A stretch of 46,864 nt of DNA, the filler included, from Sphacelaria rigidula (taxonomy: Eukaryota): assembly GCA_964200075.2 (NCBI GenBank). It is 2 parts of 2 records of this genome, joined end to end, with 100 filler letters (N's around TTAATTAATTAA, not from the genome) between each part and the next. Parts side by side here need not be neighbours in the genome. Positions count along the whole stretch, not along the records: positions 23,489 to 46,864 come from CAXNAA020000266.1; 1 more part is not named here. One strand, written 5' to 3'. Below, piece after piece: positions 8,801 to 44,100 of this stretch (within the stretch, counting starts at the first letter, position 1; each line of letters begins with the position of its first letter). The translations under genes were made by a program, and so were the position numbers. The notes below the pieces were generated by a model, which was not told the origin of the DNA, ran no database searches, and saw only the letters and a program-made list of their open reading frames with translations.

Positions 8801-11800
8801 GCACCGTCCGGTTGCCCCCCCTGGGGCAGTCCAAGGTCCAAATGGTGATCATGACCACACTCACGACCACAGCGACAGCAACAGCCATAGCCATAGCCAT
8901 AGTCATGGCCACGGGCATAGCCACGGGCATAGTCACCATCACAACGAGACAAGTGCGGAAAGTGGTGCGGAAGAGACCCCAGGAGTTAGCGAAGGCAAGT
9001 ATTTTGACCAAGTACCCGCAGGCTAATGTCTAATGTCCGAAGCAAGCGTCAGGGCCAGGTTGTGACGAACGTCCGGCCAAACAGAGGGTGCTGCAAGATT
9101 TAGATGAAGAACGCGCCAGGTTCGATATCTATATGTATATACGTGTCAAACCACTGCGCCGTTTTTTGCGGCGAGTCACGGCGAAGTCTCACCTTCTAGC
9201 CAAAGTGTTCTATCGTCGATTACTCCGTCTCCCCTCTTGCGACCCTACCACCCTGCCAAAACTCCAACTCACGGTAGCCCATCGAACATGGCTGGTATGA
9301 GATAATCGGCGGTCAAGGTCTGGAAGGAGCTCCAAAGAGTGACTACTGAGGTTCAACAGCGTGTTCTCCCAGTTGTCGGTTGTCGGTTCTTGACATTCCG
9401 TTATCACTCTCATCACAGTTACCATAGTCACCACGGTTACATGCTGCCCATACCTATAGGTTGTGTGGTTCATCATTTTCGCGGACATCGAAGAATGGAA
9501 AACTCATTGCATGTTTGCTTTGTAGGCGGGGGGGCGCAAATCCATTCTGCAGCGCTTGTAAGGCTTGGCCCTGACTGCGCTTGTACGTATCTCATATTTA
9601 TTCTAGCAAGGGTAGTTTCTGTGAGCCGACAACCAAAAACCGAAGAATGGGCCAAAAATTGCAGCATTTAGTGAAGACAGCTGGAGAGAATCGTGTGCTA
9701 GCGTAAAAGGCGAGCGAGAGACTTGTTAGACCCTGCGGACAGAACGAGAGCTCCACATCCGTGCCAGCATGCAGAGCGCACGCGTTGGTTTTCTTCGACC
9801 TTACGGTAGACCTTTTCACTATTTTGTAGGGTACCGCTGTTTGGTGTCACTGAGATACATGGTCCAACCCGCCCATTGACGCTGTGTGCACAGCCGACCA
9901 GCCTTCGAGCACCGTTCAACACGATCCCGTGCGAAATCTGAGCACGATCAGAGATATGATAATGGAGTCGGGTCTGCCGACAAAGGTCAAGGAACGCAGT
10001 GTTGCGATATTTACGGCTCTTGGCGAGGCCGAAGCCGCAACTCATGGGTCGACACTAGAACAGGTGTGTTTCATACCCGCAGTGAAATGAAAGAAGATTG
10101 TGGTTGTTTTTATGTGTATATATGTTGTACATTTTGATCCCTCCGAAGGGATCAACCATGTGTTTCCCCGGTGCATATACGCCTCACACTTGGCACCGCG
10201 GATTGGATCAGAACTCCCGCACTCCGTCAAGTCTCGTCAAACAACAAAGCCCAGTCATACTCTTTTTTCTACTCGCTTCCTCGCGTTTCAACGGCGGATA
10301 TGAGATACTGTCTTCGAAGCAAAAACCTAGACGTATCTGGCTCGAAGTGAAACCGCATTTTCCCGACCCATTCAATGGCTTCAGCTGTACATATTTAATT
10401 TTGACCACCGCGACGCGGCAGCATGCGATACCCTTGCAGTTGCACGCCCGACATGTGACTCCAGGTGCATTTTCACGAAGTTGGGGCCATTGACAGCATT
10501 ATTGACACGGTGGGGGTCGTGTATGCGCTACACCTTCTTGGAGTGGAAAAAGTCTACTGCTCTGCGCTGCCTTTCAGCGAGGTCAGTTTTATGCGTTGGT
10601 CGCCCCAGTAGGCCGTAATTTGCCGTTGCAATGGACTGCTGCTAGCCACGCGTACCGTTGCGTCTGAATGTTGAGGTTTGCTTGGATCTGGGTGGTACCG
10701 AGCTCTTGTCGCGAGTTTACGGGAAATCCTGGCATGTTGACATGCACTGTACACCGCCGTGCTTGTTTCTTCGGTAGGCGGAGTTGTGTTATTCCGTTAT
10801 TCGATGCTTCATATCTTCATGTTTCGCATTGCGCTGGGCTAGTCTTGAGCTCCAGTAATCCAGGCATATTTTCCGCAGGTCCCAACTCTTCCCAAGTCTA
10901 CTTGTTGCACTGATCTCTCCACCCCCTCGGCGTTTTCCGTTGCAGGGTACTGTGTGGACGGCGCACGGCATTCTTCCTGTCCCTGCGCCGGCGGCGCTTC
11001 GATTAATGCTCGGCATTCCCACGTGCCCTGGGCCAAAAAGGTGAGCGGACTCATTTATTCAGTTGCCCACACGAAGTTCACCCCCCTTTCTCTTGAGGAC
11101 TCACCCACCCGGTCGATACTGCACCCTGGACGATAGACGATAGACAGTGTCTATTCCGATTGAAATATAATCTTCCATAATAGACGTCATTATTGTCGTC
11201 GGTAATGGCTATCGATCGACAATTTTCCCTGTCTAATGCCGTCTGCAATGTCTGTCGTTAGATCCATTTCTCAGACTATTGCCGGGGCAGCAGTTAGTTG
11301 CGGCCCTACATCGAAAGCTATTGCCGCCAACCGAATATGTCGATAGGTAGCTCTCCAAATCAATTGATGACATGAATGGCTATTGAGAAATCGTGTACCG
11401 CATACATTGATGGTGGCGAGGGCTATTGATAGATCGCGTTCAGAATCTATTGATGACAGTTGCTATCGATAGATACATACCAATATCTACTGTGGTACAC
11501 GATGGCTATTGATGGGTATTCTCTGTCGTCTATTGCCACACCTATAATGCAACAGACTATCTAGAGCATACACTATTTTAAGGAACGGTAGATAATTGAA
11601 CATGTGGTGGGTATGTTATGATACTACATATGCAAATGTGACGTCATATTCTCTAAGTTTGGAAAATATGTATGTTATAGGAATCCGCGACATGTGTGGA
11701 CAGAAGTTTAAAAGCTTCGTTGTTGTGGTGGTGTTGGTAGTCAGGATTCTCCCTCTGATGGACAAGAGCGCTTAGAGTACTTTCATGTGTGGGTGAGATG

Positions 11801-14800
11801 CGCTTATACCCTGGAAAGAGGGAGTTTGCAGTGGAACATTGCCGCCGCAATAACCCTGGAAATGTGACTGTCAATGTCCACTGTCAGTCATAATCGACTG
11901 ACATCACTGTATATCGATAACTATTGTAGGCAACAATAGATGCCGGACAAGAGACGGAATGTATCGTTGCCGTGACAATGGAGTGGCCAAGTCGTCTATC
12001 GATGTATGTTATTCGTTACAACAAGCTCTCAATTGTGGCCGTCAGTGTCTACTGCTAATCGCAGTTGGATCTGCATTACGGCCACCAATACAAATTGCTG
12101 ATCACAATAGAATCGGAATCGCGGTCATTAATGTCTGTCGATGGTGACAGTACGACCTGAGTCGCAGCCACCAACATGTATTGCCGGCCACAGTAGGAGC
12201 TGATGACGTCGATCAATAGCCCCTGACACACATTCTTCGGTGGATGCTTCCGCCTTGGACAAAAGCTGTTGCCAGCTATCGCCTCAGGTAGTTACGTGTT
12301 CATGTGCTGGGATTATTGCCGTTGATGCCGTGAGACTACCGCATGTAAATGTCTTACTTGAAAACCTGTCGTTGGCGACGTAGGGTATCGATTGATACTC
12401 CCTACAATAGTTCACTTTTTTTTCGTCGCACTTTGAATCCTTTCTCTTATTCGGACGAGTCAGTGGTCTGACGGGATCAACCATCTCTCTCATCTATCTC
12501 ATCTCTCCCCAGGTACATGCCTTACTGCACTTTGGTCTCGCGGATTGGGTCATGACTATCAGCACTCCCGCACGGCGTCAACCCTCGTCAAAATAACCCA
12601 GTCAAGTCCTTTTTGTTTACTCACATACTGACGCTTTCGACGGTGGAATCAGATATTTCGAAGAAAAACACCAACGCATCCGAACCTTCGTTGTATCCAC
12701 CCCAGATGTTGACAACAGTCGAACCGTTACACCACCGGGGCGTCATTGTTGAGGGCAAATGCTATCGATAGATTGTTCACCGAATCTATTCATGGCGGCA
12801 ATGGTTGTCGATAGGTGGCTCACCAAATCTGTTAATGATGGCAATGGCTCTCGATAGATGGCTGATCAAACATATTCATGGCGGCGATGGCTATGGATAG
12901 ATACATCCCAGAATCCAGAGCAGTATAAGATGTGCATCGATGGCCAATTATCTTAGTCTGTTGTTTGCAATAGACACGCTTACAACATCTATTGTCACTT
13001 GCAATACATATCAATATGTGGAGCGAGCGTGAAAGAGGGACGGCAGCGACCGTCAAGGCTAGACGATGATTTTCCTCGTGTTACGTGGGCAAGGATTGAC
13101 CGTGGTCGACGTGTTCGGCGGTTGAATCACTCGGCACCGGATCAGGTCAGATGTAGGGAGAGTCATTCCCAGGGGGTTTGACGGTGGCTCTTTAGGTTGA
13201 GCTCATTATACCGGCAAGGTCCTGTTGCTTAGGGTCCCAGAGTCGGCTGCACAGATACGAGAGTTTCGGACCTCTCGAACAGTCTACGGTTGAGACTGCT
13301 CCTGTAACGGCCTTGTCTGGCTTACACGTCATATTAGAAATCTCTCCGCACATACAAAATAGCCACTTCCAAGAATACATGTGTTTTCCCCCAGCGTCCA
13401 TCCTCTGCGTCTATTATTGAAGCAATGGACAATTGTTGTGTACATGATCCAGAGTGTGGTCGATATGCATCACGGGGGGTGGTCGATCGTTCAGCATACC
13501 ATGCTGCCGTTCCTTCACGGTAACGAAACTCAGGTTGGCGAGCCGAACATTGCCCTGTGAAGCGAAGCTCGACGTCTGAGTGTATCAGCTTCCCGTGAAC
13601 TTCTAAAAGGCACAAGTCGACCACGGACTTGGCCCCCACTTGAACTGGGGACAGCATCATTCTCACCCCCCAAGCCCTGTGTGCTTGCCTTGTCGATCCG
13701 GAGGAGATAGCGCTAAGGGCGAACTGGTGACACCCACTGGAGCAGCACTGGTCCGCGTGCTTTCCTCGGAATTTGGAAGGCCGCCGCTTTTCACTCCGCA
13801 AGCCATTGGTTAGTTATGAGACAAGGAGTCGAATCTGAGCGTGCCGACCGTTTGTTCGGACTTGCGTCACGTTTCTTTTTCAGTTTGTGATTTCGGTTGT
13901 CGATGAGATGGATGTCTGTGGCATCATGGCGCCACACGCTCTCGTGATGAAGACCTGTGAGCCCGTAACCGACCTTGTTAGTTTTCCGGGGATTTTGTCG
14001 GCCGACAGTCCCGCATGTGTTTGGAGGAGGGTCGTTGTGGGCATCGATAGGCGCTAGATGGAGCTAGCCAGATACCACGAGTTCCACGAAAGTATGTGTG
14101 AAGCCAACAGGCGTGCAACAGCTGCTGTTGCCATGGTCGAGGGGAGCGGGGGGGTGGTGTGTGTTGTCATCCCATCTATTCGGGGCACCAGTTTACCCCT
14201 CTCGGTATATGTGGGCGCATCAGCCAGGGTGATACAGGGGTAGGCCAACACTTTTTTTTTTTGCTGGTGCACGTGGTCTTCCTCCCAATCTTGACACATT
14301 CATTCCTACTTCCTGTACTACTTGTACTGCCGATCATCGCTACCATTTATGACGTACTGATGTACTGTGCCGGTCGATCAATGTGCCACTGGCGGTGGTT
14401 TTTGCAGGACTGTTGCGACACACGCCATATGCGTGGCATCGAGCTTCTCGAAGCAGACGACTCTCCCGGAAAAAACTATTCCGAGCCACCCCCCGTGAGC
14501 CCGTCCATTTTGCATCCAAGGATCCGGGCGGTCAGATTAATGCTATTCCTTTGGCGAGCAGGGTGGGTCGTTGTCTGTTGATTCGGCATTATTTCCACTT
14601 GGAAAGTGAATGTGAGGCCCAGATGACCCACCCCAACGGTCAAACTCCTAGATGGCCAGCTCGAGTGTGAGCTGATGAGGGGAATTTTTTCTTCTCCGAT
14701 TTCGAATAATCTCGGGTGTCATTCTCCACGTGGGAAATCCTACAGTTTCCAGCGGATTGTTGTTTTTGTGTTTACGCCACACCTGACGCGCAGGTATTGG

Positions 14801-23388: not shown

Positions 23389-23488
23389 NNNNNNNNNNNN
23401 NNNNNNNNNNNNNNNNNNNNNNNNNNNNNNNNTTAATTAATTAANNNNNNNNNNNNNNNNNNNNNNNNNNNNNNNNNNNNNNNNNNNN
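23389..23488. other. Artificial contig linker or gap: N44-TTAATTAATTAA-N44
   Basis: Exactly 100 bp, symmetric, with a 12-mer that gives stop codons in all six frames. Confidence 0.95.
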
Positions 23489-26178: not shown

Positions 26179-27074
26179 TTAAGAAAACTAGAGGAAAAAA
26201 TGGGCATCTAGACAAATATCATGATTTCCTCGTCAACGAGAAGATCCCACAGAGGATGAAAGAACCCAGCTGCACAGAACCGGTCATTATCGGTCAAAAA
26301 TCGTCAATGCGAAGACCTGACAGAAGACACTGATTCTACACTGCTCCTGTGCACACCAAAACTCAACCGGTGGGTACACAGAAGACACCATGACCCAGGA
26401 GGTGGGGGCTATAACTAGCACTGGAGCAGGGACACGGCCATTTGAATTTCACAGGCCTTGACGGTACATTTTGATGCAAACGCGTCCTTCGGGAGGGGAT
26501 GGAACGATATCTTCGTCGGTTGTCGGCAGTCCCGTGAAGAAAAACCAAAGGTGTCACTGCTTGCGGTAGGCTATGGGCGTTTTTTATTCGTACCTGTCAC
26601 GTCTTCAGGTAAATTGTTGCCGGCCGTAAATGACCCATGCGTCGGATAACACCTCTTTCATTCTGGGATTTTTCTGGAGGGGGTGCGTTGATTTTGTTTC
26701 GGGAAGATGGGGCAGGGGTCATGAAGCAGTAGGGTAAGGTGAGTACGTTTGGACGATGTCTCCCGCGAATTCAGGGAGATCGTCACTCGTGTGTAAATTG
26801 CATATGTAATGGGCCACAAAGGTAGATACCACCCCCATCGTGTTTGGGGAGGGCTTACAGCGGTGTGAACCCCGAATGGACAGAAACAGGTGGTCGGGGA
26901 TAAATACTCTAATGTTTACACGTTCTATTTATGTGCTCCTGTGTTTGGGTGCATCGCCGTTCCACATGTTCGGGAGATTAGAAACGGATTTCTTCAAGGA
27001 ATGGGAGGTCTTTAATGATTTATACCAAGACGGTCGAATCTTCACCTCCCTGGAAGCCCGTGATGTCTCGGGAC

Positions 27075-27113
<39 letters not shown>
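27075..27113. repeat. (TTG)13 microsatellite
   Basis: Read directly from the sequence. Confidence 0.95.
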
Positions 27114-27116
<3 letters not shown>

Positions 27117-28099
27117 TTGCAAAAATATTTAAATTCGCGACGTGGCCAGGGCCGCGTTATGAGAAAAAAATGTGTCAAGAAGAGAAACAAAACCGCTTTG
27201 CACATTTTCGACCGTATCTCATAGAGCGTCACCGAATTCAAGTCTGATTGCGGCGGAATTCCCATCAGATCACGAGCTTTCAAGGGAGTAACGGTCGTTT
27301 CGGACGATTCGATCGTGCTGGTGTAAATCACGAAAAATCTCTCGTTCCGAGAAAAAAAAACGTTCCTAATCTCACGAACATGTTGTTGTTCGTCTGTAAC
27401 AGGCCAAAACGGTAGATACCACTCGTGTGATCATGTCTGGGAAGGGTGGAAAAGTATTTTCATCCTTGTATTTTTCCTTCACTGTTGGAGTAATCCAAGA
27501 TACTTGCCATTCGATAGGCGGAAAGGTGGATACCACTCCCGGGGGCGCCTGTTTTTCATCGTCACATGCGGTTTGAGTCCTGGCATGATCGATTGCTGAA
27601 GAAAAGTTTGAGATGTGAACAGTGAGGTTTGCGAGGGGCAGGGAGGTCCGGAGATCGCTGATGTGCCATGCCGGCACGGACCATACAAGATACATGTTGT
27701 TCAGGAAACGAAGAGTTTACCCATTGAACCAGTGAGCGCTCAGTATTTAGTTTAATGGGTAAACTCTTGCCTTTGTGCCAGCAGCCCCCCCTCGCCCAGA
27801 TCTGACTTCACCAATGTGGTTTATTCACTATTATGCGTCATCTGTCCAATTTCGGGCTCTCAGTGAATTTTACAACCTCTTGCCCGCGTGGGTTGTTGGA
27901 CACATCATTTTTCCAGGTGACATTCATGCTGACTCAATAGATGATCTATTCTGGCGGATCAAAATCTTTGTGTATCAAAGTATAATAATCTCAAAAATGT
28001 GCCTGGATTACCACGAATGTATCCCCAGTGTACTCGTAGTTACTGAGTTGTTTCGTGTGTATGTTGTCATCCCGTCTATTCTGAACGCCAGCTTACACC

Positions 28100-29636: not shown

Positions 29637-32600
29637 GTTCACACAAACCGGTATCACTTCACCTCACACAAGACAGTGTGGTATGTACCGACCCTGTGCA
29701 ACACCAGGACTCACGGAAGACGCCACGGCTCAGGGGATAGGGGCTGCAATGATGTACTGAAGAACTCACTATGAATGTGTTCGACGCTGCATTCTCCACC
29801 AGATGACAAGCTTTCGGTAAGCCTTCAGCGCCGGAGGTGCTGATATGTGGAATCGGTATCATTTCGACTTGAAGAAGGCCTGAATAGGATGCCGATTTCA
29901 CAAATAAATGAACAGCTCAGGTGGGTCGGGGGTTTGTTGAATAGGCATCATTTTCAGACCTCATTCAAGTGAATATAATCTCTACAATGACAATGTGTGA
30001 ATTCTCGAAGCACTCTGTGCCTACGGAGCCATGGAACACCTTCGCTGTCCGAGTGTTCACGGTCTGCCTTTCTCGGGTCACGGTTGGGCCTAGTGTTGGA
30101 AGTGCAGTTGGGGCAGTCTATCAAATATTCGGATATTATGGAGAGAGGGGCTAAAATCGAAATTGAGCCGTGTGACTGCCCCTTGTTGAATCGGCATCAT
30201 TTTCAGGCCCCTTTCAAGTAAAAATGATGCATACAACGTCAGAATATGTGAATTTCCGAACGAGTGGAACTTCGCGACGAATGAAAAATTCCGAGGAGGG
30301 AAGCGAAAAAGTGCGGTTTATCACAGAGAGGGGAAGAATAAAATACTGACACATAGTTCGTCGAGGTACGGGGAAATTCTACGCTGTCGTGCGTCACAAA
30401 ATGACACCTGTGTGCAGGGAAGCCGTTCAAAAATATGCTTAATGCAAATTGATGACAGAAAGCTTTTGGCGCTTCGCGCCACCGCTCAATGGAGTGTTTC
30501 CCAAGGCAAAGGTTCATGTGGAGTGTTCGGCGCTGAACATATGATTTGCAGATCATTTGATATTCTAAAGAAATAATGGGATCCTAGAAAGTGCATGTGT
30601 GTAGGTTGGCGATCGCACATCAGGCATAGAACTGCCCGTACAAGCGAAATGAGATAATCAGCCCGCGAGAAAAATGAACTCATCCACTTACAAAAGTTAC
30701 CTGCCAGTAGGGCTCCGTGCCCTCGGGGTAACCTGTGCATTGAAGTGCGCAACTTGATTCAAACAAAGGGCCTTAATCTGTTTTAGAGTCATGGCCTGCA
30801 TAGCCCCTCGGAATTAAAAAACATTGAAGTATTACATTGATCTGCGTAGCCAATCGAATCAGATCGCGCAGAGGAGGGGGGTATGGCACAAAGATGTCGC
30901 GGTGAGGTTGAATTGGTGGTGCAGCCGTGTGAGCCGAAGGGGCGAGTGGGTAGCGATTTTGCCGTCTGTTTGGATACATGCATTACTAACGTATCCCCTG
31001 CAGGCAACCTATTGGCATCGCACCGAACGATAGAGTACGCCGCTGTATGCACAGCCCCCGAGTACCCTTCGAACCGCCTTCTCAGACATTGTGTGTGTGG
31101 GCACCGGTGATTGTACTGTTGAAGTAAAGTGCGGTCGCCGACCTCTCGCAGTCATCGCTGGTATTTATGAATATTGGTGAAGATTTACAGTACATATATA
31201 CAGGTCGATGGCGCCGTGGCCTTTCCGATTGCCTCGCAGTTTCACAGGGAGGTCACCAAAAATATGTTGACTGTAGTTTGTACCCCCATACATGTGCAGG
31301 CAGTATCATGTTGTTCACTTTGCGGGGTCGTTGCTTGGCATGGGAGCGAGAGATGGGTAAATCGTATGAAGCTGCTTGCTGTTGTGCAACGAACAATCTC
31401 TCCAAAACGAGCCTGTTTTGATGATTCAGTGCCGATTGTCGCCGGCATACGTGGTTCGGCGGATTATGTTACCTCATTAAGAATTGCTACTGTACTCTCT
31501 GCGAGGGTTGTAGCCCACTTCATCGAACTTTCATGCGCCCAGTTTGACTTTTGGCCGGATGAACAATTTGTCGACCAGTCCACGAAAACGGTTTCGCAAG
31601 TGACCCCAAAAAGTCATCTGGGAGTGCCCTCGAAGTTTTTCGTGGACTGTTTACTGTTTGAGAAATCATTCGCCCGGCTGAAAGCACAAATGGACCTACG
31701 AAAAGGTCGGAGAGGGCGATGGAACCCTCTCGGGAAAGTACAGCAAGACTTTCCGAGGTGTCACAATCGGCAAAGCCTCGAACTACTCGTACTGCTGTTG
31801 TTCTCGGGGGAAGATTGGCGCTGAATTGCCCAATAAAATATATAGTAGTGCTATGCACGGCTTTCGTGGAGAAAATGTGTTCAAACCCCTGATAAAATAT
31901 AATTTGAATTTTCGTGCAACGATTGTGTGGCCCGTTTTTGCCGCACATCAACTACATGCCGATACAGTTAGTACAGTAGTGGACGGTCTATCTATTCGTT
32001 TTGTGGCATTTCGTGATATTTTCGTGGTTGGCGATTTCCTTGGGCTCTTTTGCTTGTCACCGCTTATCACATTGGGGATCTGAAGATACTTGTATCCGCT
32101 TCACATTCCAAGAAAAATAAATCGTCTGTACTCAATACTCAGTGACTTATGGACTGACTGGTCATCGGGGATCGTGACACCTTTCAGTCCAGATTCTTAC
32201 TCTTCAGTATTTTCGGTTGATCGAGTCTGTCCTGATCATCTTTTGTAAAGAAATGTACAATTTTACTTTTTTGAAATTCCACCTACTCATTGCTCTACAG
32301 CCGAAAAACTGTGTTTCACGGCCAATAATATCCTCCTCATAGACGGCTTATTTAGTCGTATCGCCCGACAACACCAACTAATACTGGCTTGGGCACTGTT
32401 TTTCGAGGATGATCTGTATATTGTACCAAAATCTACCGACGCTAGCAATTTCGAGTTCTATCGAAGAATAGTACGTCAGGAAAACCACAAAACACCGCTG
32501 AATAGTTAGACCGCCCACTACTGTAGTTCTTGCATCACGAGTGTTTCTTCAATGCCAAAACACAATGCACATCCCGCAACAGCACCCGCCACCTCAACAA

Positions 32601-33498
32601 ACGGTCAAAAACATCTGAGACGGAAGCAAACATCACCGAGTAGAAATTCCGCAAAGCATTCGCTCCATCTCAGAGGAAAATTCACGCCAGGTGTTCTCAC
32701 GATGAGTAGCAGTAGATCGATCTACTCCACCTGTTGCCCATATCAAACCTTTGACGACGAGCATGAATAGGTCATGCGTTCGATCTGCATCAAATTAGCT
32801 TGGAAAATGACCACATAGAACCACATATTTTTGAGCTTAAAATCGAGATTTGTTGTTGGAACGGAAGGTTTTTCGTGACTTATACCAAGGCGGTCGAATC
32901 GTCCGAAACGGCCGTCACCGCCCTGAAAGCCTGTAACCTGACGGGAATTATGTTGCAAAAATATTTGGAATAGACGAGGCCAGCACAGTCAAACGGCTCG
33001 GTGTGTCACTAGTGTCAAGTTCCGTGTGTTGAAATCCCAGGAAGGAAACGTTAAACGGCTCGTCACGTTAGTGGTGTCGGAGGTTCCGCGCGTTAAATTT
33101 CTAGGGGGAGAGGCAAGTGAAGAGTGTCGCGGAAACAGGTTGTGTCAATTCCGAGTCGGGAAACGCGAGATTCTGGTGAGCAGCTCACTGGCACGAAGGA
33201 GAGGCAAGCGGCTGGGGAAATCACTGATCCCAGAGTAAATTCCGCCGAGGAAGGGCAAATTCCGCGTGGGGAAACGGGAAGTTGCTGAGAAGGCGCGGTT
33301 TATCACAGAGAAGCGGAAGGATCACATACTGCCACCTGGTGCGCCGGGGTGCGGGGAAATGCCGCGTTGTCATGCGTCATAAATATGACACCTGTGTGCA
33401 GGAAAGCGGTCTGAAGAATAATAACATGTGTATAATAAAAATATATACATGAAAAATACCCCGTCACCCGTACGAGCCTTGATGTTTATAAATGTTCA

Positions 33499-34441
33499 CA
33501 CCCTGGACAACACAATATGTAATATATATTGCCCGCTCAATATGTCGACGCGTCGGGTGATCAATATATATTGGGCAAACGACATGATGACACGAGAGAG
33601 GGTCAATATATATTGTGCCATCAATATGTTAAGGCTCGCGACATGCAAAATATATTGACCGAACAATATATCACGACACGCGCCACCTCACTATATTTTG
33701 GCCGAGTAATATGTTGGTCCGAGAAAACACCAATATATATTTGTCGAGTAATATATTGGCTGCCACACGAGGTCAATATATATTGACGATTCAATATACT
33801 CGACACCCGAAGCGCCAACATATATTGCCGCCCCAATATGTCGTGCGTCAATGCGTCCAATATATATTGGGCGGACACTATACGAGGGAACCGACGGTCA
33901 CAATACATGTTGGTGTAGCAAAATGTATTGATTTTCAACATATTTATTGGAAATTGTATTGGAATGAGTATAATAGGCAGTTCTTTGTTCGCAGGCGCCA
34001 TTCAAAGACGTATTTTACATGCCGAAAATGCTCAATGTATTCCTCCGCAAGCGTGTTCAATATATATTGGCTGCACAATAGCTATCCGATCAACGTGCGC
34101 AATATATATATTGGAAAAACAATACTTCTGCATGGTTTGCGTTTAATATATATTATGGTAACAATATGCTACGGGTCGCCTCGACTCAACATATATTGAC
34201 GCTTCAATACACGCACGGCCGGCATGCATAATATATATTGAATGTTTTATTCTCGGAGCAACTGCATGCCCAATATATATCGGCATACATTACTTCATGA
34301 TCATGACACGAGCAATATATGTTACTGCTTCAATATCTCCGAGGATATCTCAACGCAACATATATTAAAAGGACAATCTTTGCGCTGGCTCCAATACAAA
34401 ATATTGGTATCATATTGGAACATATTGTATTGTCCAGGGTA
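33499..34441. mobile_element. Non-autonomous TIR element (CACTA/EnSpm-like ends) filled with a 42-43 bp periodic repeat-spacer array
   Basis: TIRs CACCCTGGACAACACAATATG / CATATTGTATTGTCCAGGGTA. About 18 units of CAATATATATTG-N6-CAATATR-N17/18. Confidence 0.8.
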
Positions 34442-34663
34442 TAAGCAACCCAGCCCCGGTGACCACAGGGGTACCAAAAGGCGCATATCGACCCGCGTTT
34501 TCTGTCGTCGTGATGTTTAGCCAATATATTTATGTTACATGCTGGAAAGGGGATGGGCGGCCCCGCACGGTGGCCAGATAGGTATCAGGAGGCATATATA
34601 CCGGGCCGCCTCTTCTATCACCATTTTTTCTGACCAGTATATATATATATATATATTATATAC

Positions 34664-35701
34664 GTCAAACGCATTCGACAACTTTCCGGAGTAGTGCGCG
34701 CGAACTTCTACGGCTCCCTTTGAAGTTTTTCCCGATCTGCACGGGCTCCGGCACCCATCGCGTCTAGATCTTTCTCAAAGCGTACACCATACTTATAGCA
34801 TCTAATATATATTGACCGGCAAATACATCGACACACACGTAGACCCAATATATATTGACCGGTCAATATGTTCCCACCAATGCGATCCTAATATATATTG
34901 GCCGTGCAGAATGCCGTCGCCCGCGCTACCCCAATATATACTGATGGAACAATATGGGTTCAACCCCATAGTACCAATATATGTATTGGACGAGCAATAT
35001 GTATGCAGTCCCACGACATCAATATATATTGGGCGCGCAATACGTGTGCAGTCCAAGGGTACCAATATATATATTACACCGGCAATAAATCGCAAAATTC
35101 CAATATGATCGACGAATATATATATATATATATATTGAAAATATATTGTATTGTCCAGGGTGTGATAAATATATGTATATGTCAAACGCATTCGACAACT
35201 CTCCCTAGTAATGTACGCGAACTTCTGCGGCTCCCTTTGAAGCTTTTCTCAATTTGCACGGGCTTCGGCACCCATCGCGTCTGGATCTCTCTCAAAGCGT
35301 ACACCATACTTATAATATCCAATATATATTGACCGACCAATACATTATCACCCACGCAGACCCAATATATATATATATATATATTGATCGATCAATATGT
35401 TCTCACCAATGCGACCCTAATATATATTGGTCGTGCAATATGCTGTCGCCCACGCTGCCCCAATATATATTGGTGGGACAATATGTGTTCAACCCCACAG
35501 TACCAAAATATATTTATATATATATATATATATATTTATTGGGCGAACAATATGTATGCAGTCCCACGACATCAATATATATTGGGCGCGCAATACGTGT
35601 GCAGTCCAAGGGTACCAATGTATATTACGCCGCCAATATATCGCAAAATTGCAATATGATCGACTAATATATATTGAAAACATATTGTATTGTCCAGGGT
35701 G
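34664..35701. repeat. Tandem duplication (34664-35162 and 35181-35701); each unit ends in the same right TIR and carries a 7-unit 43-bp array
   Basis: Both units start GTCAAACGCATTCGACAAC and end TATTGTATTGTCCAGGGTG. Their spacers are alignable to each other. Confidence 0.88.
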
Positions 35702-36784
35702 TGCTACATCTAAAGAGTTGTGCGGGCGCTCCGATACTACGGTGTCATACTCTACTTATGCACGTCGGTTGAACGTTGCACAACCGCTTGCCACCGGTGC
35801 TACTGCTACTCCACTGCACGGTGGTGCTATTCCCCTGCGTTTTCCCCCGTCTCGCTGGGTTTACTTTGCGGTATTAGCGTATCACCGTGCATGACTCTTG
35901 AGGGCGTTTGGGGTCTGTATGACTGTCCCTAAGTGGTACTATTCACGGCTGATTGTGGTTGCCTATGGACGGGGTGTCTATCATGGGCAAAGTCGGTGGT
36001 CGAATAGCGGCCGGCAAACCTCGGCACAAAAATGTTGGACGTAGTTCGGAGATCGAGACGCATGGCGCACGTTTGGACGAGTGGACGATATGGGAAGATC
36101 TCGGAAAAGTGTGGCCACCATTGCTGTGCCACCGTTGGAAGAGCGGATTTATGGTATCTCGGCTGCCCTTGAAAACCGCGAGGTTCATGCACGTTTCTAG
36201 CGCGGAAGAGGAGACAGGTAGGTGGCGTTTTCCGCCAAAAGCAGGGGTGCGGGTGTTTCGGTCGGCCAGATCGCCGGGCATGTCGTCTCATGTCGTGGTG
36301 CAGCCTGTGCCTGATCGTGACCGAAAACAATTTAGGTATGCCTGGAACTGTGTTGATTGTGTTCACGTAAATCGAATCTTTCATCAGCATCTAGCAAAGC
36401 GTGAAAGTGTTCAGCCTGTATTCGAGTACTGCTTCAATCGGGGTCTTCTGGCAGTACCTCTTTCGCTAATGAAAATGTATTTTAGATACTTGAAAAAAAG
36501 TATATCTGGTAGTACAGTAGTGTGTGCATCACGACTATGAAGCTCGTCGTGAGTAAGTGCGTTACTATCACATGCCCTCCCTTGACACCCGTGCGTCAGT
36601 CATGCGCCTTAGTCATAGCGAAGATCAGCTTACGATAGGTTGATCGCGGTTCGTGCGTGCCCGTTACACCCACTCGTCGCGATAATAGTGCGCTGACTTT
36701 GGCTTCTGTCAACCTTGTTGCTGCACTCATATTATGACACCACCTCCCCCCTCCCTGTCCCGCTATCGCTCTCAATATACAAAG

Positions 36785-39379: not shown

Positions 39380-40539
39380 TGTGTAATGTGCGTGCGTGCG
39401 TGTAAGTGCTCGAGTTTTACGTGTAATGGTGCTCTTTTGCTGTTCGATGTTTTCGTGTGTTGTCCTGTGTATGATGTGATTTTGGCGACGTCTCTACCGC
39501 GGTGTATGTGCTCCCGGATAGAGGGAGAGTAAAGATGTTGTGCCCGTTGTTTCGTTTCGTATCCATATGATTGAATTTCAGGAACACGCGCTCTGTATGC
39601 CTATCGGTGTAGCACCAAGCACATTTACGTATCATTTGTGTTCTCTTGTTCAAAGGGGGCTGATGCGGTCGAATGGAGCCCCCTTGCGATCATGCAAAAT
39701 GGCATTTGAAGGCAAATATTGTTGTGTCTAGTTAGTTATCAAGCAACATGCGGTATAGAAAATAAATATCATCGAAACCTCGTGCCTATACCATAAATCG
39801 CATGCTGTTGTGAAAACATATACTCATTTTACGCGTGTGTTTCGAAGCTGGTCGTGGCGTTGAGTAACAGATTTCCCAGCGACATACAATTTTTGATTAT
39901 TTTGGTTGTTGCCTTCAAAATTATCTTCAAGTGTTCCTGCTTTTGGCTTCCTACGCATTAATGTGAAGACAACAACAACGCAGGTCAGGCCGCGAAATTT
40001 TTGTGCACGTGCACAAGAAGAGCTGTGTGGCATGCTTTTGAAAGTGAGGGTACTGCTACTGTACAGTTCTGCATCTTCGAGGACACGTTTCTATTTTGTG
40101 TTGACACCGATGGTATATTTCAAAAGGAGTGTTGGTTGAGCGTGTTCTCTGTTGTATGATCAGCGACGTAGGTATGTTCATATTTCAAAACGATGAAAGT
40201 CACCGTGATACAATCACCCCGCATATATGTATGGTTGCATCTAAACCTGCAGCTCATTTTTTGTTTTTCCATGTTTTACTCGTATTTACTAGACTACTAG
40301 CTTCACCGCAGCATTGATCACAAGTTTATTTCCATTGAGGTGCGACATGATCCGAAATCCCACGCAGACTGAGAACGTGCACATTTTCGGTGGCCCCAAG
40401 GGTCTGCCGAGCGAAATTTTCCAGACACGTAGCCCCCCCCCCCTCACGGACATTTTTTCGAAAATTGTCACGATTTTTTCGATTTTTTTTGTCAAGTTTC
40501 TCGCAAGGAGTTGATCAATAAATACTGTTTTGATTATTT

Positions 40540-41145
40540 TTGTTAATTTTGTTACAAGAAATTGATCAATAAACGCTGACAAAAACCGAAAAGTTTGGTG
40601 GGCTTCGTGGGGTTCGTATATCTGCTTCTGCTCCCTGCCCGTTCTGTCCCGATGACCTCAGATGCCGGAGGGCAATTTTTCGGCAATTAAAATCATCCGT
40701 TTAAAAAATATATATTTTCGGTTAACTTTGTTGCAAGAAATTGATCAATGTACATTGACAAAATCCGAAGAGTTTGGTGGGCTTTGCGGGGTATATATTT
40801 GCTTCTTCTCCTTTACATATTTATTTATATATTTGAAACATAAAATTATATAATAAAGGGATCATATGCTATGTATTATATAACATCTATTATATATTAA
40901 TATATGATTCTAAAATACAGTATATGCTGCCCCTTGATGAATATTCGTATATATGATTTCAGTACATAATGTACAATATGATGTTTATAATATATACAAA
41001 ATAGTATATATTAAGGAGAAGCATATGTGTAATATAGACCTATAATATTGACCTATATTATATGGTACACAAAATATGAAATATAATACATGGTATGTAA
41101 TATATTATACATGATATATAATATATCATCATATAAGTATATCTA
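40540..41145. repeat. Duplicated ~90-bp repeat (40545-40635 and 40725-40812) followed by a very AT-rich low-complexity tract at the Gypsy truncation point
   Basis: CAAGAAATTGATCAAT...TGACAAAA.CCGAA.AGTTTGGTGGGCTT occurs twice. 40815-41142 is strongly A/T-rich. Confidence 0.7.
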
Positions 41146-41149
41146 CTGT

Positions 41150-44100
41150 CTCCGGCAGCTGACCGCATCCATCAACGCTGGCATGGCAGACAGCATTTGA
41201 TATGCGTGGCAACATCTTTTTGACATGGATGGCCACCAGAAACGATCTCAGAGTCTATCATACGTTGCTTTGAATGCGAGGTGTCCACCCGACGCGGGGG
41301 CATCATGGCACTCATGTAAGATCAAATCACGGAGGGTGGTGGGAACGACTAGCTGATCATGGAAAGCTTGGTTCTTGCGCAGATAACCAGGCAAATACGA
41401 ACGGAATAACACGTCTTCGTTTAAGAAGTCCTTGCTCATGGAACCTTTGCTTTCACCATGTGGGAGCGCTATGTCAGGCTCGCGTACGTAGTTTAGATAC
41501 GCACTAAACGCTTTGCGCTGTTCTTCCTGGAGTTGGGCAGGATCGAGCACAGGGAATAACGAAACGGCACTAGAAAACAATTCCGTGTCGTTTTGCACTA
41601 TGTCAATCTCGTTCAACGAGTCGGCGGAAGTTTCGTAGTCACGTGGCCCAGGTGAAAAGTACGGACGATCACTCGGCACAAACTGGCAGACAGACGCTAA
41701 CGCCGGTTGGTGTGCCACTGATTCAGTTCAAATTTCGCCGAACAAACGAGATTGTGCGTCGGGGACTACGTTCAGTTTCTCGGGTACATACTCTACAGTA
41801 AAGTCGTAATTTTGGAGAGCAATAGCCCAACGAGTGAGCATGTTGCTAGTATCTTCCATGTAGTACAAAGCGTGAATGCGCTAATGCATGCACTACTCCA
41901 TAACACTCCAAGGGTAGGTCGAGTAGAGTATACTCAATACTCAGTAATTTTGAAGAGTCATACTTTTAGTACTCAAAATTTGAGTAGAGTATTTGAGACC
42001 GTACTCGACCTACTCAAACGTCGAGTAGAGTAAATACTCGAGTATTTTACTCGAGTACTCAAAAGTACGTACTCTACTCGACCTGCCCTTGCAACACGCT
42101 TTCATCGACACTGAATAGTGTCGTTGCCCATGTTTAAAGCGGTGGCTATAGTAAGCAATGATGTCTAGGGACTTGTCATCATCCTTAAACAGCTGGGCAA
42201 GGAAAGCACCACATCCAGTTTCAGACGAATCAACGTGGACGACAAACTCTCTGGGAAAACCCGGGGAATGTAAAACCGGTGCTGGAACCAATAGACGCTT
42301 GATGTGCGCAAATGTAACATCGTGGTCAACATTCCAAGCTTTTTTGAAACGAGATTTTGTGGCATACTCTTTTTCCGTGAGTTCCACCAAGGGTGCAGTA
42401 ACTTCGGCGTAATCAAGAATAAAACGGAGCACAAAATTAACTACCCCAAGCACTGAGCGAAGTTCTTTGATGCAGGTGGGTGTCGGTAGTGCGTTGATAG
42501 CTTTGATCCGATCCTCCCCAACAGAGACGCCGTCTTTGGAAATTACGTGCCCGATATATTCAATCGATTTAGAACCAAACGCGATCTTTGACGGTTTCAA
42601 TGTCAGTCCGGCTGCCTGCAGAGCTACGAATATGCTCTCCAAATACTTCAAATGATTGTCGAAATTCGCTGACAAGACACAGAGATCATCCATGTAAATC
42701 AACAATTCGGGAATGTGGCCTAACATTTCATGGGCCATCTCAGTGAAAACCTACGGCGCATTACACACCCCAAACGGCATTCTCTTACAACAGTATTTGC
42801 CTTGGTTGGTAACAAACGCCGTACGCTCTACGTGGTCTGACCTTTCTGGAAGCTGCCAGTACGCGCTCTGTACGTCGGCAACGGAGATGAACTGTGCGCT
42901 ACCGACGGTGTAGAGGTCGGACTCCATGTTCGCCATCGGCCACGTCTTGCGAATCAGCAGCTTATTCAACGTAGTACGGTAGTCGACGCAGAAACGAGGT
43001 TGTCCATCTTTACGAGCGACGATCGTGACGGGGGAAACCCATGGGCTAGGTAGTTCTTCAATGATCCCGTCAGTGAGCATATCATTCACGCACTTAATAA
43101 TAACGGCTTCGGCGCGAAGGTTGGCACGGTACGGTCGGCGGCTCACAGGTTTAGTGTTGGGCGGCAAGGGAAACGTTGCGTCATGGGTGGTGCATTTTCC
43201 GAGTTCACTACGGTTCAACGAAAACACGGGACGGTATTTTGCACACAAATCTAAAACTTGAGCTTGTTGCTCAGGGGAAAACGGGGAGTCAGCGAAAGCG
43301 TTCTGCAACGGTTCGGTGAGTTCTTGGCGTGCATGAGCGATTTCACCCACGGTTTTGGGAGTCGCTACAACGAACGGCATGCACGCAAAGTTTGTCAGGT
43401 TGTACGATATCAACTGGAGACAGTTTCGCAAGGACTAGGTTGTCATGCAATGCGAGAGACTCCGACGACGGATTGGCAACTTGTAAGTATACTGCGCCAT
43501 CTCGAGCATGCCAAGTAGTGAAAGTACGCGCGACGAGTACACGTTCAAATTCGATGGGGAAGTCACCAGATTTGATTTCTTCAGTTGTCATCAAGCGAGG
43601 TTCAACTACAACGGTGGTATCATATAACGGTATGACCTCCGAGTACGCTTTTACGATTGCGTTATGCCCGGGGGAATGTTATAATGTCGATGCAGGGTGA
43701 TCGAATGCTCCCGTGCTCTTTTGTGCACAGCAGCAACGGTGAACGTGGATGGAGGCGTGATGCTGGCGCGTGGTACTTTACGATGTAACGCAGGGAGAGC
43801 GGTATCATTCGATGCAAAAGTCAGTTGTTCGTTCTTCCAATCAAGTACTGCACGGAAACGAGACATTGTGTCATTGCCAAGCAAGATTTGACCAGGGCCG
43901 AGGGAAGGGATCACCAAGGCATCAATACGGCGGGAGACGTCTCCCGAACGAACGTTTAACGAAAGATAACCCAACACTTGAAGTGATGCTCAAATTTGCG
44001 GCATTTGGCTTCATGTGAGAGAGTGATACGGGCTCGAGTTGAGCAAACGATCATGTGGGATGTCGTTTCAAGTACGAAAGTGAGACACACGTGATATCAC

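Follow-up and report, generated by a model that had tools for sequence, protein, structure and literature searches.

What kind of element is a stretch of DNA in which a 12-bp palindrome recurs every 42-43 bp, each copy being parted from the next by sequence that differs in every unit? This question is raised by a locus in the window, the term used here for the whole stretch of 46,864 nucleotides that was analysed, where the original prediction placed a single element bounded by terminal inverted repeats (TIRs) at 33499-34441 and filled by a repeat-spacer array. The region 33497-35703 is one decayed, partly tandem-duplicated copy of an abundant non-coding TIR transposon family. Our main reading, to which we give a probability of roughly 0.7, is that this family represents a high-copy, non-coding and non-autonomous TIR transposon of a stramenopile alga, carrying helically phased modules that would bind a transposase. 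The host is most likely a brown alga. The window itself is nuclear eukaryotic DNA, with short exon-like ORFs matching HECT, RbfA, peptidase M41, nickel-insertion and AAA_12 helicase domains, and with a fragment of a Ty3-type retrotransposon; the nearest matches of the HECT ORF are stramenopile proteins (at most 49% identity), and no tRNA was found in the window.

The modules are best introduced by the palindrome CAATATATATTG, which, with up to two mismatches allowed, matches the window 45 times (1.72 expected; maximum of 5 in 100 shuffles). Twenty of these matches fall in 33520-34367, 17 in 34803-35676 and eight elsewhere. All 18 palindromes originally listed are present, five of them with no mismatch, seven with one and six with two. 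Array A (33520-33943, + strand), defined by palindrome matches, spacings, autocorrelation and information content, comprises 10 units of 42-43 bp, all in one orientation, in which the palindrome is followed by 6 nt, by the half-site CAATAT(G/A) and by about 18 variable nt. Its palindromes start 42, 42, 42, 43, 42, 43, 42, 42 and 43 bp apart, and the autocorrelation over 33520-33943 peaks at lag 42 (0.474, the largest shuffle value being 0.345). Sequence inspection and spacings mark an irregular centre at 33944-34057 (+), without the 42-bp register and with ATTG and CAAxAT fragments abundant in its left part. This is followed by array B (34058-34400, +), whose 8 units of 42-44 bp are oriented like those of array A and are more decayed; here the spacings are 42, 44, 43, 42, 42, 42 and 43 bp, the value of 44 corresponding to a 2-nt expansion of TA.

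The strict period that had been proposed is therefore borne out, with unit lengths of 42-44 bp, and so is the proposal that only the motif and the spacing are kept, since what is conserved is the 12-bp palindrome plus the CAATAT half-site 6 nt downstream. Across 17 units, the information content amounts to 1.0-2.0 bits at positions 1-12 and to 1.0-1.4 bits at positions 19-24, with about 0.1-0.2 bits at positions 13-18 and 0.8 bits at position 26; the remaining positions lie around chance (0.13), within a range of 0.0-0.5 bits. The half-site is within one mismatch of CAATAT in 15 of the 18 units, and the exact single CAATAT half-sites at offset 18, as read off the listed positions, number 15, all of them on the + strand. 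The density of CAATAT reaches 29.5 per kb in the element, 70 times the value of 0.42 per kb for the remainder of the window. Each module thus consists of three CAATAT half-sites, two of them placed head to head to form the palindrome and the third 6 nt downstream. In every array of 33497-35703 the modules share one orientation, both halves of A/B included. This common orientation of all units in both halves was absent from the original prediction.

These arrays start directly at the tip of the element. The left TIR, CACACCCTGGACAACACAATATG (33497-33519, +), is recognised by inverted-repeat search, motif count and contig exits, and has two parts: an outer one, CACCCTGGAC, common to a second family discussed below, and an inner one, CAATATG, which is the half-site of the arrays. 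Written as CACACCCTGGACAACA-CAATATG, this terminus passes directly into the first palindrome. Since the palindrome is made of two CAATAT head to head and the inner TIR is CAATATG, the array repeats the inner TIR.

The inverted termini of the original prediction are real, the start being at 33497 (CACACCCTGG) and the end proposed at 34441 being internal. At 34401-34443 the right terminus occurs inside the family unit, reading TATACCCTGGACAATACAATATG on the minus strand, and three ATATTG half-sites at intervals of 10-11 bp come before it (period 10 at 34401-34427); the arms 33493-33520 and 34420-34447 form an inner TIR pair of 28 nt with 86% complementarity, and neither contig alignment nor translated copies treat the 945-bp piece ending at 34441 as having a family boundary there. 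Repeats, contig depth and copy alignment assign the following non-array segment (34442-34802, +) to the repeated family as well. This segment holds a (TA)13 run at 34638-34662, and a duplicate of its final ~140 bp lies at 35183-35319. The proposal that the array fills the element holds for A/B up to 34441, beyond which two further arrays follow, with termini at 35164 and 35703. Array C (34803-35141, +), identified by a tandem-repeat period of 43 and an autocorrelation of 0.532 at lag 43, has 7 units of 43 bp and leads into another right terminus at 35142-35164 (minus strand, CACACCCTGGACAATACAATATA), with the AT-rich ATAAATAT next to it.

The sequence at 35176-35680 (+) is a tandem duplicate of 34659-35141 (direct repeat, 87%), made up of the ~140-bp segment and array D (35320-35680). 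The C/D block hence consists of two tandem copies of ~520 bp with 91% mean column identity, whose length differences are (TA)n expansions in palindromes. In array D, such expansions within two palindromes lead to periods of 55 and 69, and with this TA slippage the decaying arrays C and D illustrate the loss of constraint. The family unit ends with the outermost right TIR, CACACCCTGGACAATACAATATG on the minus strand (35681-35703); the pair formed by 33497-33529 and 35671-35703 is 33 nt long and 85% complementary, and the family termini can be written as CACACCCTGG...CCAGGGTGTG. The 19-mer terminus has four matches in the window (0.03 expected). With a length of 2.2 kb, or ~1.7 kb without the local duplication, the family unit exceeds the small size of MITEs, which are usually below ~800 bp. 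ORFs of at least 80 aa inside 33497-35703 had no Pfam match, and there is no transposase coding capacity.

The extent and the abundance of the family were derived from Logan contigs of four public sequencing runs, one of them labelled algae metagenome, aligned to 32500-36500. Over 33438-35715, the summed contig depth was 11,475-74,384 in run X3, against 25.9 on the flank (35716-36500), and 5,896-28,455 in run X4, against 14 on the flank; the non-array segment 34442-34802 alone had ~20,000 in X3, against the same 25.9. Although summed contig depth is no copy number, the contrast with the flank is hundreds- to thousands-fold, and 33438-35715 is thus a high-copy repeat. Contigs depart from the window sequence at 33495/33497 (27+47 in X3, 15+24 in X4, 12+20 in X5) and at 35703 (70, 72 and 17, respectively), and the low agreement among the flanks of these departing contigs (0.40-0.47) indicates unlike flanks and therefore dispersed copies with defined ends. 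No break was found at 34441 in the aligned contigs, and 85 contigs of X3 cover the nearby place 34450. In addition, the translated array ORF retrieved 8 protein representatives among 1.84 billion proteins, all 8 being translations of other copies on separate contigs, and one of them, P0104, is colinear with window 33756-34683, running through the internal terminus at 34441. Because copies and contigs cross 34441, the family unit is 33497-35703, and the element first predicted is only its left part. As a side observation, contig joints that jump over 529-601 bases could be explained by copies in which the C/D block occurs once; these are represented by one contig each, with short sides, and were left uncounted. 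Run X6, one of four runs with small shares that are guessed to be RNA, also contains short contigs of the family, with RNA and DNA origin being indistinguishable.

Searches in other collections returned chance matches. In a metagenome collection, the 18-nt terminus gave 36 loci with a single match each, none of them with CAATATATATTG and two with a partial palindrome word, and these 36 loci were rejected as family members on the grounds of their single matches without CAATATATATTG. The palindrome followed by 6N and CAATAT gave 6 and 82 loci in viral and prokaryote-genome collections, respectively, all single matches and judged to be chance.

The outward look of the arrays, with repeats parted by unlike spacers of fixed length, had led to the more speculative suggestion of a CRISPR-like array that acquires spacers or is processed into small RNAs. 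In the form weighed here, the spacers would come from invaders, or the transcript would be cut at the palindromes. The spacers are indeed GC-richer, as had been noted (0.59 vs 0.49 in the window). Their history, nevertheless, speaks of descent rather than acquisition. Host contigs align at 90% identity or more across the spacers, and translated copies from other contigs have the same spacer-encoded residues in the same order, with differences consisting of substitutions and of gaps of 6 and 13 residues, the latter being about one module. In the younger arrays, adjacent units of C and of D share 13 of 18 spacer nt (P=0.002 for C; P<0.001 for D), for which reason we consider that the arrays grew by module duplication and then diverged. 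A search of spacers with shuffled controls, as the original prediction had proposed, gave, against the rest of the window, best matches averaging 12.83 of 17, against 12.72 of 17 for shuffled spacers, that is, no better than the controls. Folded as RNA, 33497-34441 is far more stable than shuffled sequences (z = -8.97, 20 shuffles). Such a score is to be expected where 18 AT palindromes can pair with one another and TIRs are added, and it is silent on processing; no Rfam family matches the window. A CRISPR-like or small-RNA array is therefore highly improbable. The sharing of spacers across copies, which had been named among the marks of an ordinary subterminal repeat, does place the family within that type, of which it represents an unusually extensive and regular case.

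Duplicated modules could equally be expected in an old 42-43-bp minisatellite inside a MITE-like element, amplified by slippage and without any role in transposition, where the motif would be the least mutable or the latest homogenised part of the unit. Besides the spacer sequence shared by adjacent C/D units, this explanation would account for C and D being called plain 43-bp tandem repeats (75-78%) by TRF, for the two tandem ~520-bp blocks as the product of a duplication-prone locus, and for the weak residual similarity among the spacers of array A (7.39 vs 6.56 ± 0.22 of 18, P<0.001); transposons with internal tandem repeats, such as Tetris and Galileo, are also known, as far as the available accounts of them go. 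Similarity across the whole unit, as in a plain minisatellite, is partly present in C and D and is not seen in A and B. Indeed, no residual spacer similarity was found in array B or in the comparison of A with B, and the in-register spacer identity of A and B is 0.273, against 0.262 expected from composition, so that their spacers are mutationally saturated. Under neutral decay, 18 positions would not remain at 1-2 bits beside 22 at chance, and the (TA)n core, being the most slippage-prone part, is expected to be the least stable and yet is the best kept. The identity of the conserved half-site with the inner TIR also stands against a minisatellite, which we consider unlikely on the whole.

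A further argument in favour of transposase-binding modules comes from the length of the units, which is kept despite the saturation of the spacers: it is 42-44 in 16 of 16 units. In a simple neutral simulation, all units stayed within 41-44 with P=0.016 at a pairwise distance of 2 and an indel:substitution ratio of 0.03, and with P=0.0011 at a ratio of 0.05; from 0.03 upwards, P did not exceed 0.016. Each unit was given 22-24 free positions. Because the model takes the units to have diverged from a single one and uses borrowed indel rates, it represents support for a kept spacing, not proof of it.

The same layout is found a second time in the window, at 11122-12943, with a different half-site. 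The left end of this second family has CACCCTGGAC, exact, at 11122, followed by GATAGAC GATAGAC and by 8 units of ~43 bp (11122-11540, +); its module consists of the palindrome CTATCGATAG, with TCTATTGATG 23-24 nt later. Palindromes related to CTATCGATAG start at 11209, 11252, 11337, 11380, 11423, 11463 and 11506, and the autocorrelation of this array at lag 43 is 0.407 (largest shuffle value, 0.360). A second array (12744-12943, +), oriented like the left one, has 5 palindromes at 43-bp spacing (12762, 12805, 12848, 12891 and 12934), an autocorrelation of 0.534 at lag 43 and a tandem-repeat period of 43 with 3.5 copies; likeness across the unit, as in a plain minisatellite, is partly seen in this right array. 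As in the first family, each 43-bp module combines two inverted sites with a lone third one, and all modules face the same way. Here the half-site is GATAGA/CTAT, and the distance from the palindrome start to the lone site is ~24 nt, compared with 18 nt in the first family. The GATAGA/CTAT half-site matches the sequence adjacent to the family's own tip. A second family that repeats the layout with another half-site, matching in turn its own tip-proximal sequence, is difficult to reconcile with a minisatellite.

No right terminus of the second family was found in the window. The 10-mer CACCCTGGAC alone has 5 matches, against 2.09 expected, a number reached by 4 of 100 shuffles and considered not significant; what gives weight to its being shared is where it stands, at the start of the second-family array. 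A 14-nt identity, GCTTATACCCTGGA, between 11802-11815 and 34433-34446 (minus strand) had no extension in blastn.

The modules might also be sites for a host DNA-binding protein, for example a transcription factor that binds as a dimer, or a protein of chromatin or of matrix attachment. The element would then disperse an array with a regulatory or architectural role, and its transposase would need only the tips. Dimer-type sites typically have this form, an AT-rich palindrome of 12 bp accompanied by a half-site; the cluster is located ~250 bp upstream of ORFs matching the helicase domain AAA_12 that start near 35953, and MITEs spreading transcription-factor motifs are described in the accessible part of PMC5950925. 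However, the half-site belongs to the TIR, and in the second family it differs along with the TIR-proximal sequence, which ties it to the transposition machinery. Furthermore, the motifs of the window copy decay like its spacers, with no sign of host constraint at this locus. At 33649, 34229, 34281 and 34367, the palindrome is restored by the letters found in most host contigs, as is the half-site of unit 2, where the loose-end consensus is ...GAGCAATATG...; the family ancestor would thus have had cleaner modules, and the window copy is decaying. Nine well-supported private changes were counted in arrays A and B, four in palindromes and five in spacers, and this 4/9 is about the share of motif positions. 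The private changes of the window copy look like neutral decay in place, and palindromes that decay as fast as spacers give no sign of a host function there. Family-level selection on motif and spacing, for its part, rests on one copy plus contig summaries. Taken together, sites for a host protein seem quite improbable to us, and transposase-binding modules are retained as the preferred reading.

The assignment of the family to a known superfamily is hindered by its target site. In other copies, the palindromic sequence AAATATT(T/C) adjoins both ends, with a hint of GT...AC beyond it in the contig flanks. Being palindromic, this flank fits a duplication of TA, ATAT, AATATT or AAATATTT, or else a longer TIR. 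The flanks of the window copy are ATAAATGTT on the left and, on the right, ATAAATATA following 35164 or CTACATCT following 35703, and no clean target-site duplication was found around it. The CACTA/En-Spm superfamily, to which the original prediction had looked, is not supported: the tip is CACAC(CCTGG), not CACTA, the termini are not 5'-CACTA...TAGTG-3', and there is no 3-bp duplication, since the window flanks GTT and CTA/ATA differ. A symmetric 3-bp duplication is excluded in any case, because the flank on both sides (AAATATTT) is a palindrome of even length. Membership in piggyBac fails as well, for lack of the TTAA target duplication: TTAA adjoins none of the four termini in the window, nor the consensus flanks of other copies. 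Among 161 of the 194 stop-to-stop ORFs of at least 80 aa in the window, no match to a DNA-transposase family was found, and the mobile-element domains in these scanned ORFs were only retrotransposon RT, RNase H and integrase.

Arrays of transposase sites in transposon ends are known, even if they are usually short and irregular. In CACTA/En-Spm elements, many short motifs bound by TNPA lie inside the TIR element ends, irregularly spaced and in both orientations. The family shares with them the many subterminal motif copies and a tip that begins with CAC, and differs from them by its strict period and single orientation. The Drosophila FB foldback elements have internally repetitive ends, with long inverted arms of repeats. 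Galileo and Tetris are described, in the accounts available, as foldback-type elements with internal tandem repeats, and the likeness in this case includes mostly non-coding TIR elements, a bulk of short tandem repeats and the ability to seed tandem arrays. Contrary to foldback repeats, which form long inverted arms, the array of 33497-35703 runs in one direction, with an inverted repeat of only ~23-33 bp, and conserves a motif within the unit rather than the whole unit. A foldback element was thus rejected, given that long inverted repeat arms are absent and that all modules in every array have the same orientation.

Two other systems come closer. The subterminal repeats of Lemi1/Emigrant and Sleeping Beauty correspond to the inner half of their TIRs and are cooperatively bound by the transposase, and Emigrant is a non-autonomous element relying on a transposase supplied in trans, according to the accessible text of PMC1636448. 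Both the pogo-like Lemi1/Emigrant and the IR/DR of Sleeping Beauty share with 33497-35703 an internal motif that is the inner TIR, and their TA duplication is one of the four readings given above for the target site; in that text, each of their ends has one to three repeats, and a long array of strict period is absent. Since the transposase binds such repeats in these systems, the inner-TIR repeats of the family may likewise be sites of the transposition machinery.

The nearest described parallel, by analogy and as far as the available text of PMC11707139 goes, would be the left end of piggyBat. According to that text, GCGGGA occurs there at bp 11-16, 55-60 and 99-104, that is, with a 44-bp period; an imperfect palindrome follows each GCGGGA after 3 bp, each module binds the transposase independently, the third module restricts activity, and arrays of subterminal repeats exist in many uncharacterised transposons. 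Both piggyBat and 33497-35703 would combine a short motif with a nearby palindrome, head to tail, at a period of about four helical turns (44 vs 42-43 bp), with a first module that begins inside the terminal repeat and two ends that are not mirror images. However, piggyBat is described with 3 modules at one end, whereas the family has ~25 modules filling the element; the order is motif, 3 bp and palindrome in the former, and palindrome, 6 bp and half-site in the latter; and the TTAA of piggyBac stands against the AAATATT(T/C) that adjoins the tip in other copies of the family. No description of the family was found in the literature. The brown-alga genome preprint (10.1101/2024.02.19.579948) deals, in the part accessible, with repeat masking only, and there may be a repeat library among its supplements in which the family is included.

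The phased protein-binding scaffold put forward in the original prediction is the reading of the arrays best supported by the sequence, from which we infer protein binding, the selection on spacing and the identity of the binder. According to this mechanism, the outer tip CACCCTGGAC would be the part recognised for cleavage, and the CAATAT half-sites would act as docking sites for a transposase, or for an accessory DNA-binding protein, supplied in trans. With a period of four helical turns, successive modules would lie on one face of the DNA, so that many protomers could bind side by side, giving the element a higher avidity for a transposase that it does not encode. The arrays would expand by tandem duplication of modules; lineages that keep transposing would retain only the half-sites and the module length, with spacers drifting to saturation, and each inserted copy would then decay neutrally.

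A bolder extension of this mechanism, which we put forward tentatively and hold to be rather less than an even bet, would be an undescribed brown-algal cut-and-paste lineage defined by the conserved cleavage tip CACCCTGGAC and by modules with family-specific half-sites, each an inverted pair with one single site, set at an unvarying four-turn period over the full length of the element. Its members would form a protein-coated, phased filament, and non-autonomous copies of ~25 modules would behave as high-avidity parasites, or sponges, of the transposase. If true, it would represent an extreme, genome-scale version of the three-module end that the available text describes for piggyBat. What is new here is a high-copy family made almost wholly of modules at a strict four-turn period, together with a second family within the same 47 kb in which the layout is kept and the half-site changed. 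If binding is confirmed, these families would provide a natural experiment on the separation of tip recognition from site-specific docking, on the tuning of mobilisation in trans by module number and phasing, and on how a non-coding element may out-compete its autonomous partner.

The family also bears on the annotation of brown-algal genomes, in which such an abundant repeat can be mistaken for coding sequence. A protein record exists for at least one copy: the representative P0098, with 76% identity over 72 residues, carries an NCBI name that makes it a product of the brown alga Sphacelaria rigidula, and is deposited as an unnamed protein product.

A second element of the TIR type is found at 11122-12943, and its start is formed by the same 10-mer, CACCCTGGAC, that begins the first family, the high-copy non-coding TIR transposon. 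Its modules are 43 bp long and consist of a palindrome, CTATCGATAG, and a single site, TCTATTGATG, both of which differ from the palindrome and half-site of the first family. No right terminus of this element was found in the window. Both elements also contain the exact 14-mer GCTTATACCCTGGA, which lies within the second element at 11802-11815 (+) and recurs at 34433-34446 (-), where it comprises the first family's internal terminus, a right-terminus copy inside the unit, plus the outward 7 nt. By blastn, the identity between these two places stops at the 14-mer and does not extend, and GCTTATACCCTGGA may represent a variant tip common to another subfamily.

Within the first family, two palindromes of the duplicated array, the second copy of a tandemly repeated block, have a (TA)n core that has grown into microsatellites (35363-35386 and 35504-35541), and the TA length varies at 34102 and 35065 among host contigs from public sequencing runs. 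The protein-database match P0098, which is on record for Sphacelaria rigidula as an unnamed protein product, is a translated copy of the non-coding repeat of this family, and is probably a spurious gene model.

Outside these elements, an LTR retrotransposon of the Ty3 type is represented by a fragment at 41251-43434 (-), perhaps reaching 46278, with matches to RVT_1, RT_RNaseH_2, and Integrase_H2C2 that fall in separate frames; the fragment is probably degenerate. Adjoining it is an AT-rich stretch (GC 0.37) in which a 51-bp unit is tandemly repeated 1.9 times at 40477-40573, and a (TTG)15 microsatellite is located at 27075-27119. Two runs of 44 N, at 23389-23432 and 23445-23488, are either gaps in the assembly or masked sequence. 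The sequence CCCTGGAAGCCCGTGATGT, at 27048 (region 27045-27066), recurs in the loose end of one contig from the public sequencing run X6, which departs from the window sequence at 32911 (region 32860-32911), and contig depth is elevated in the bins 32500-33035. The window holds more dispersed repeats, part of them with a CCCTGGA core (13 sites).
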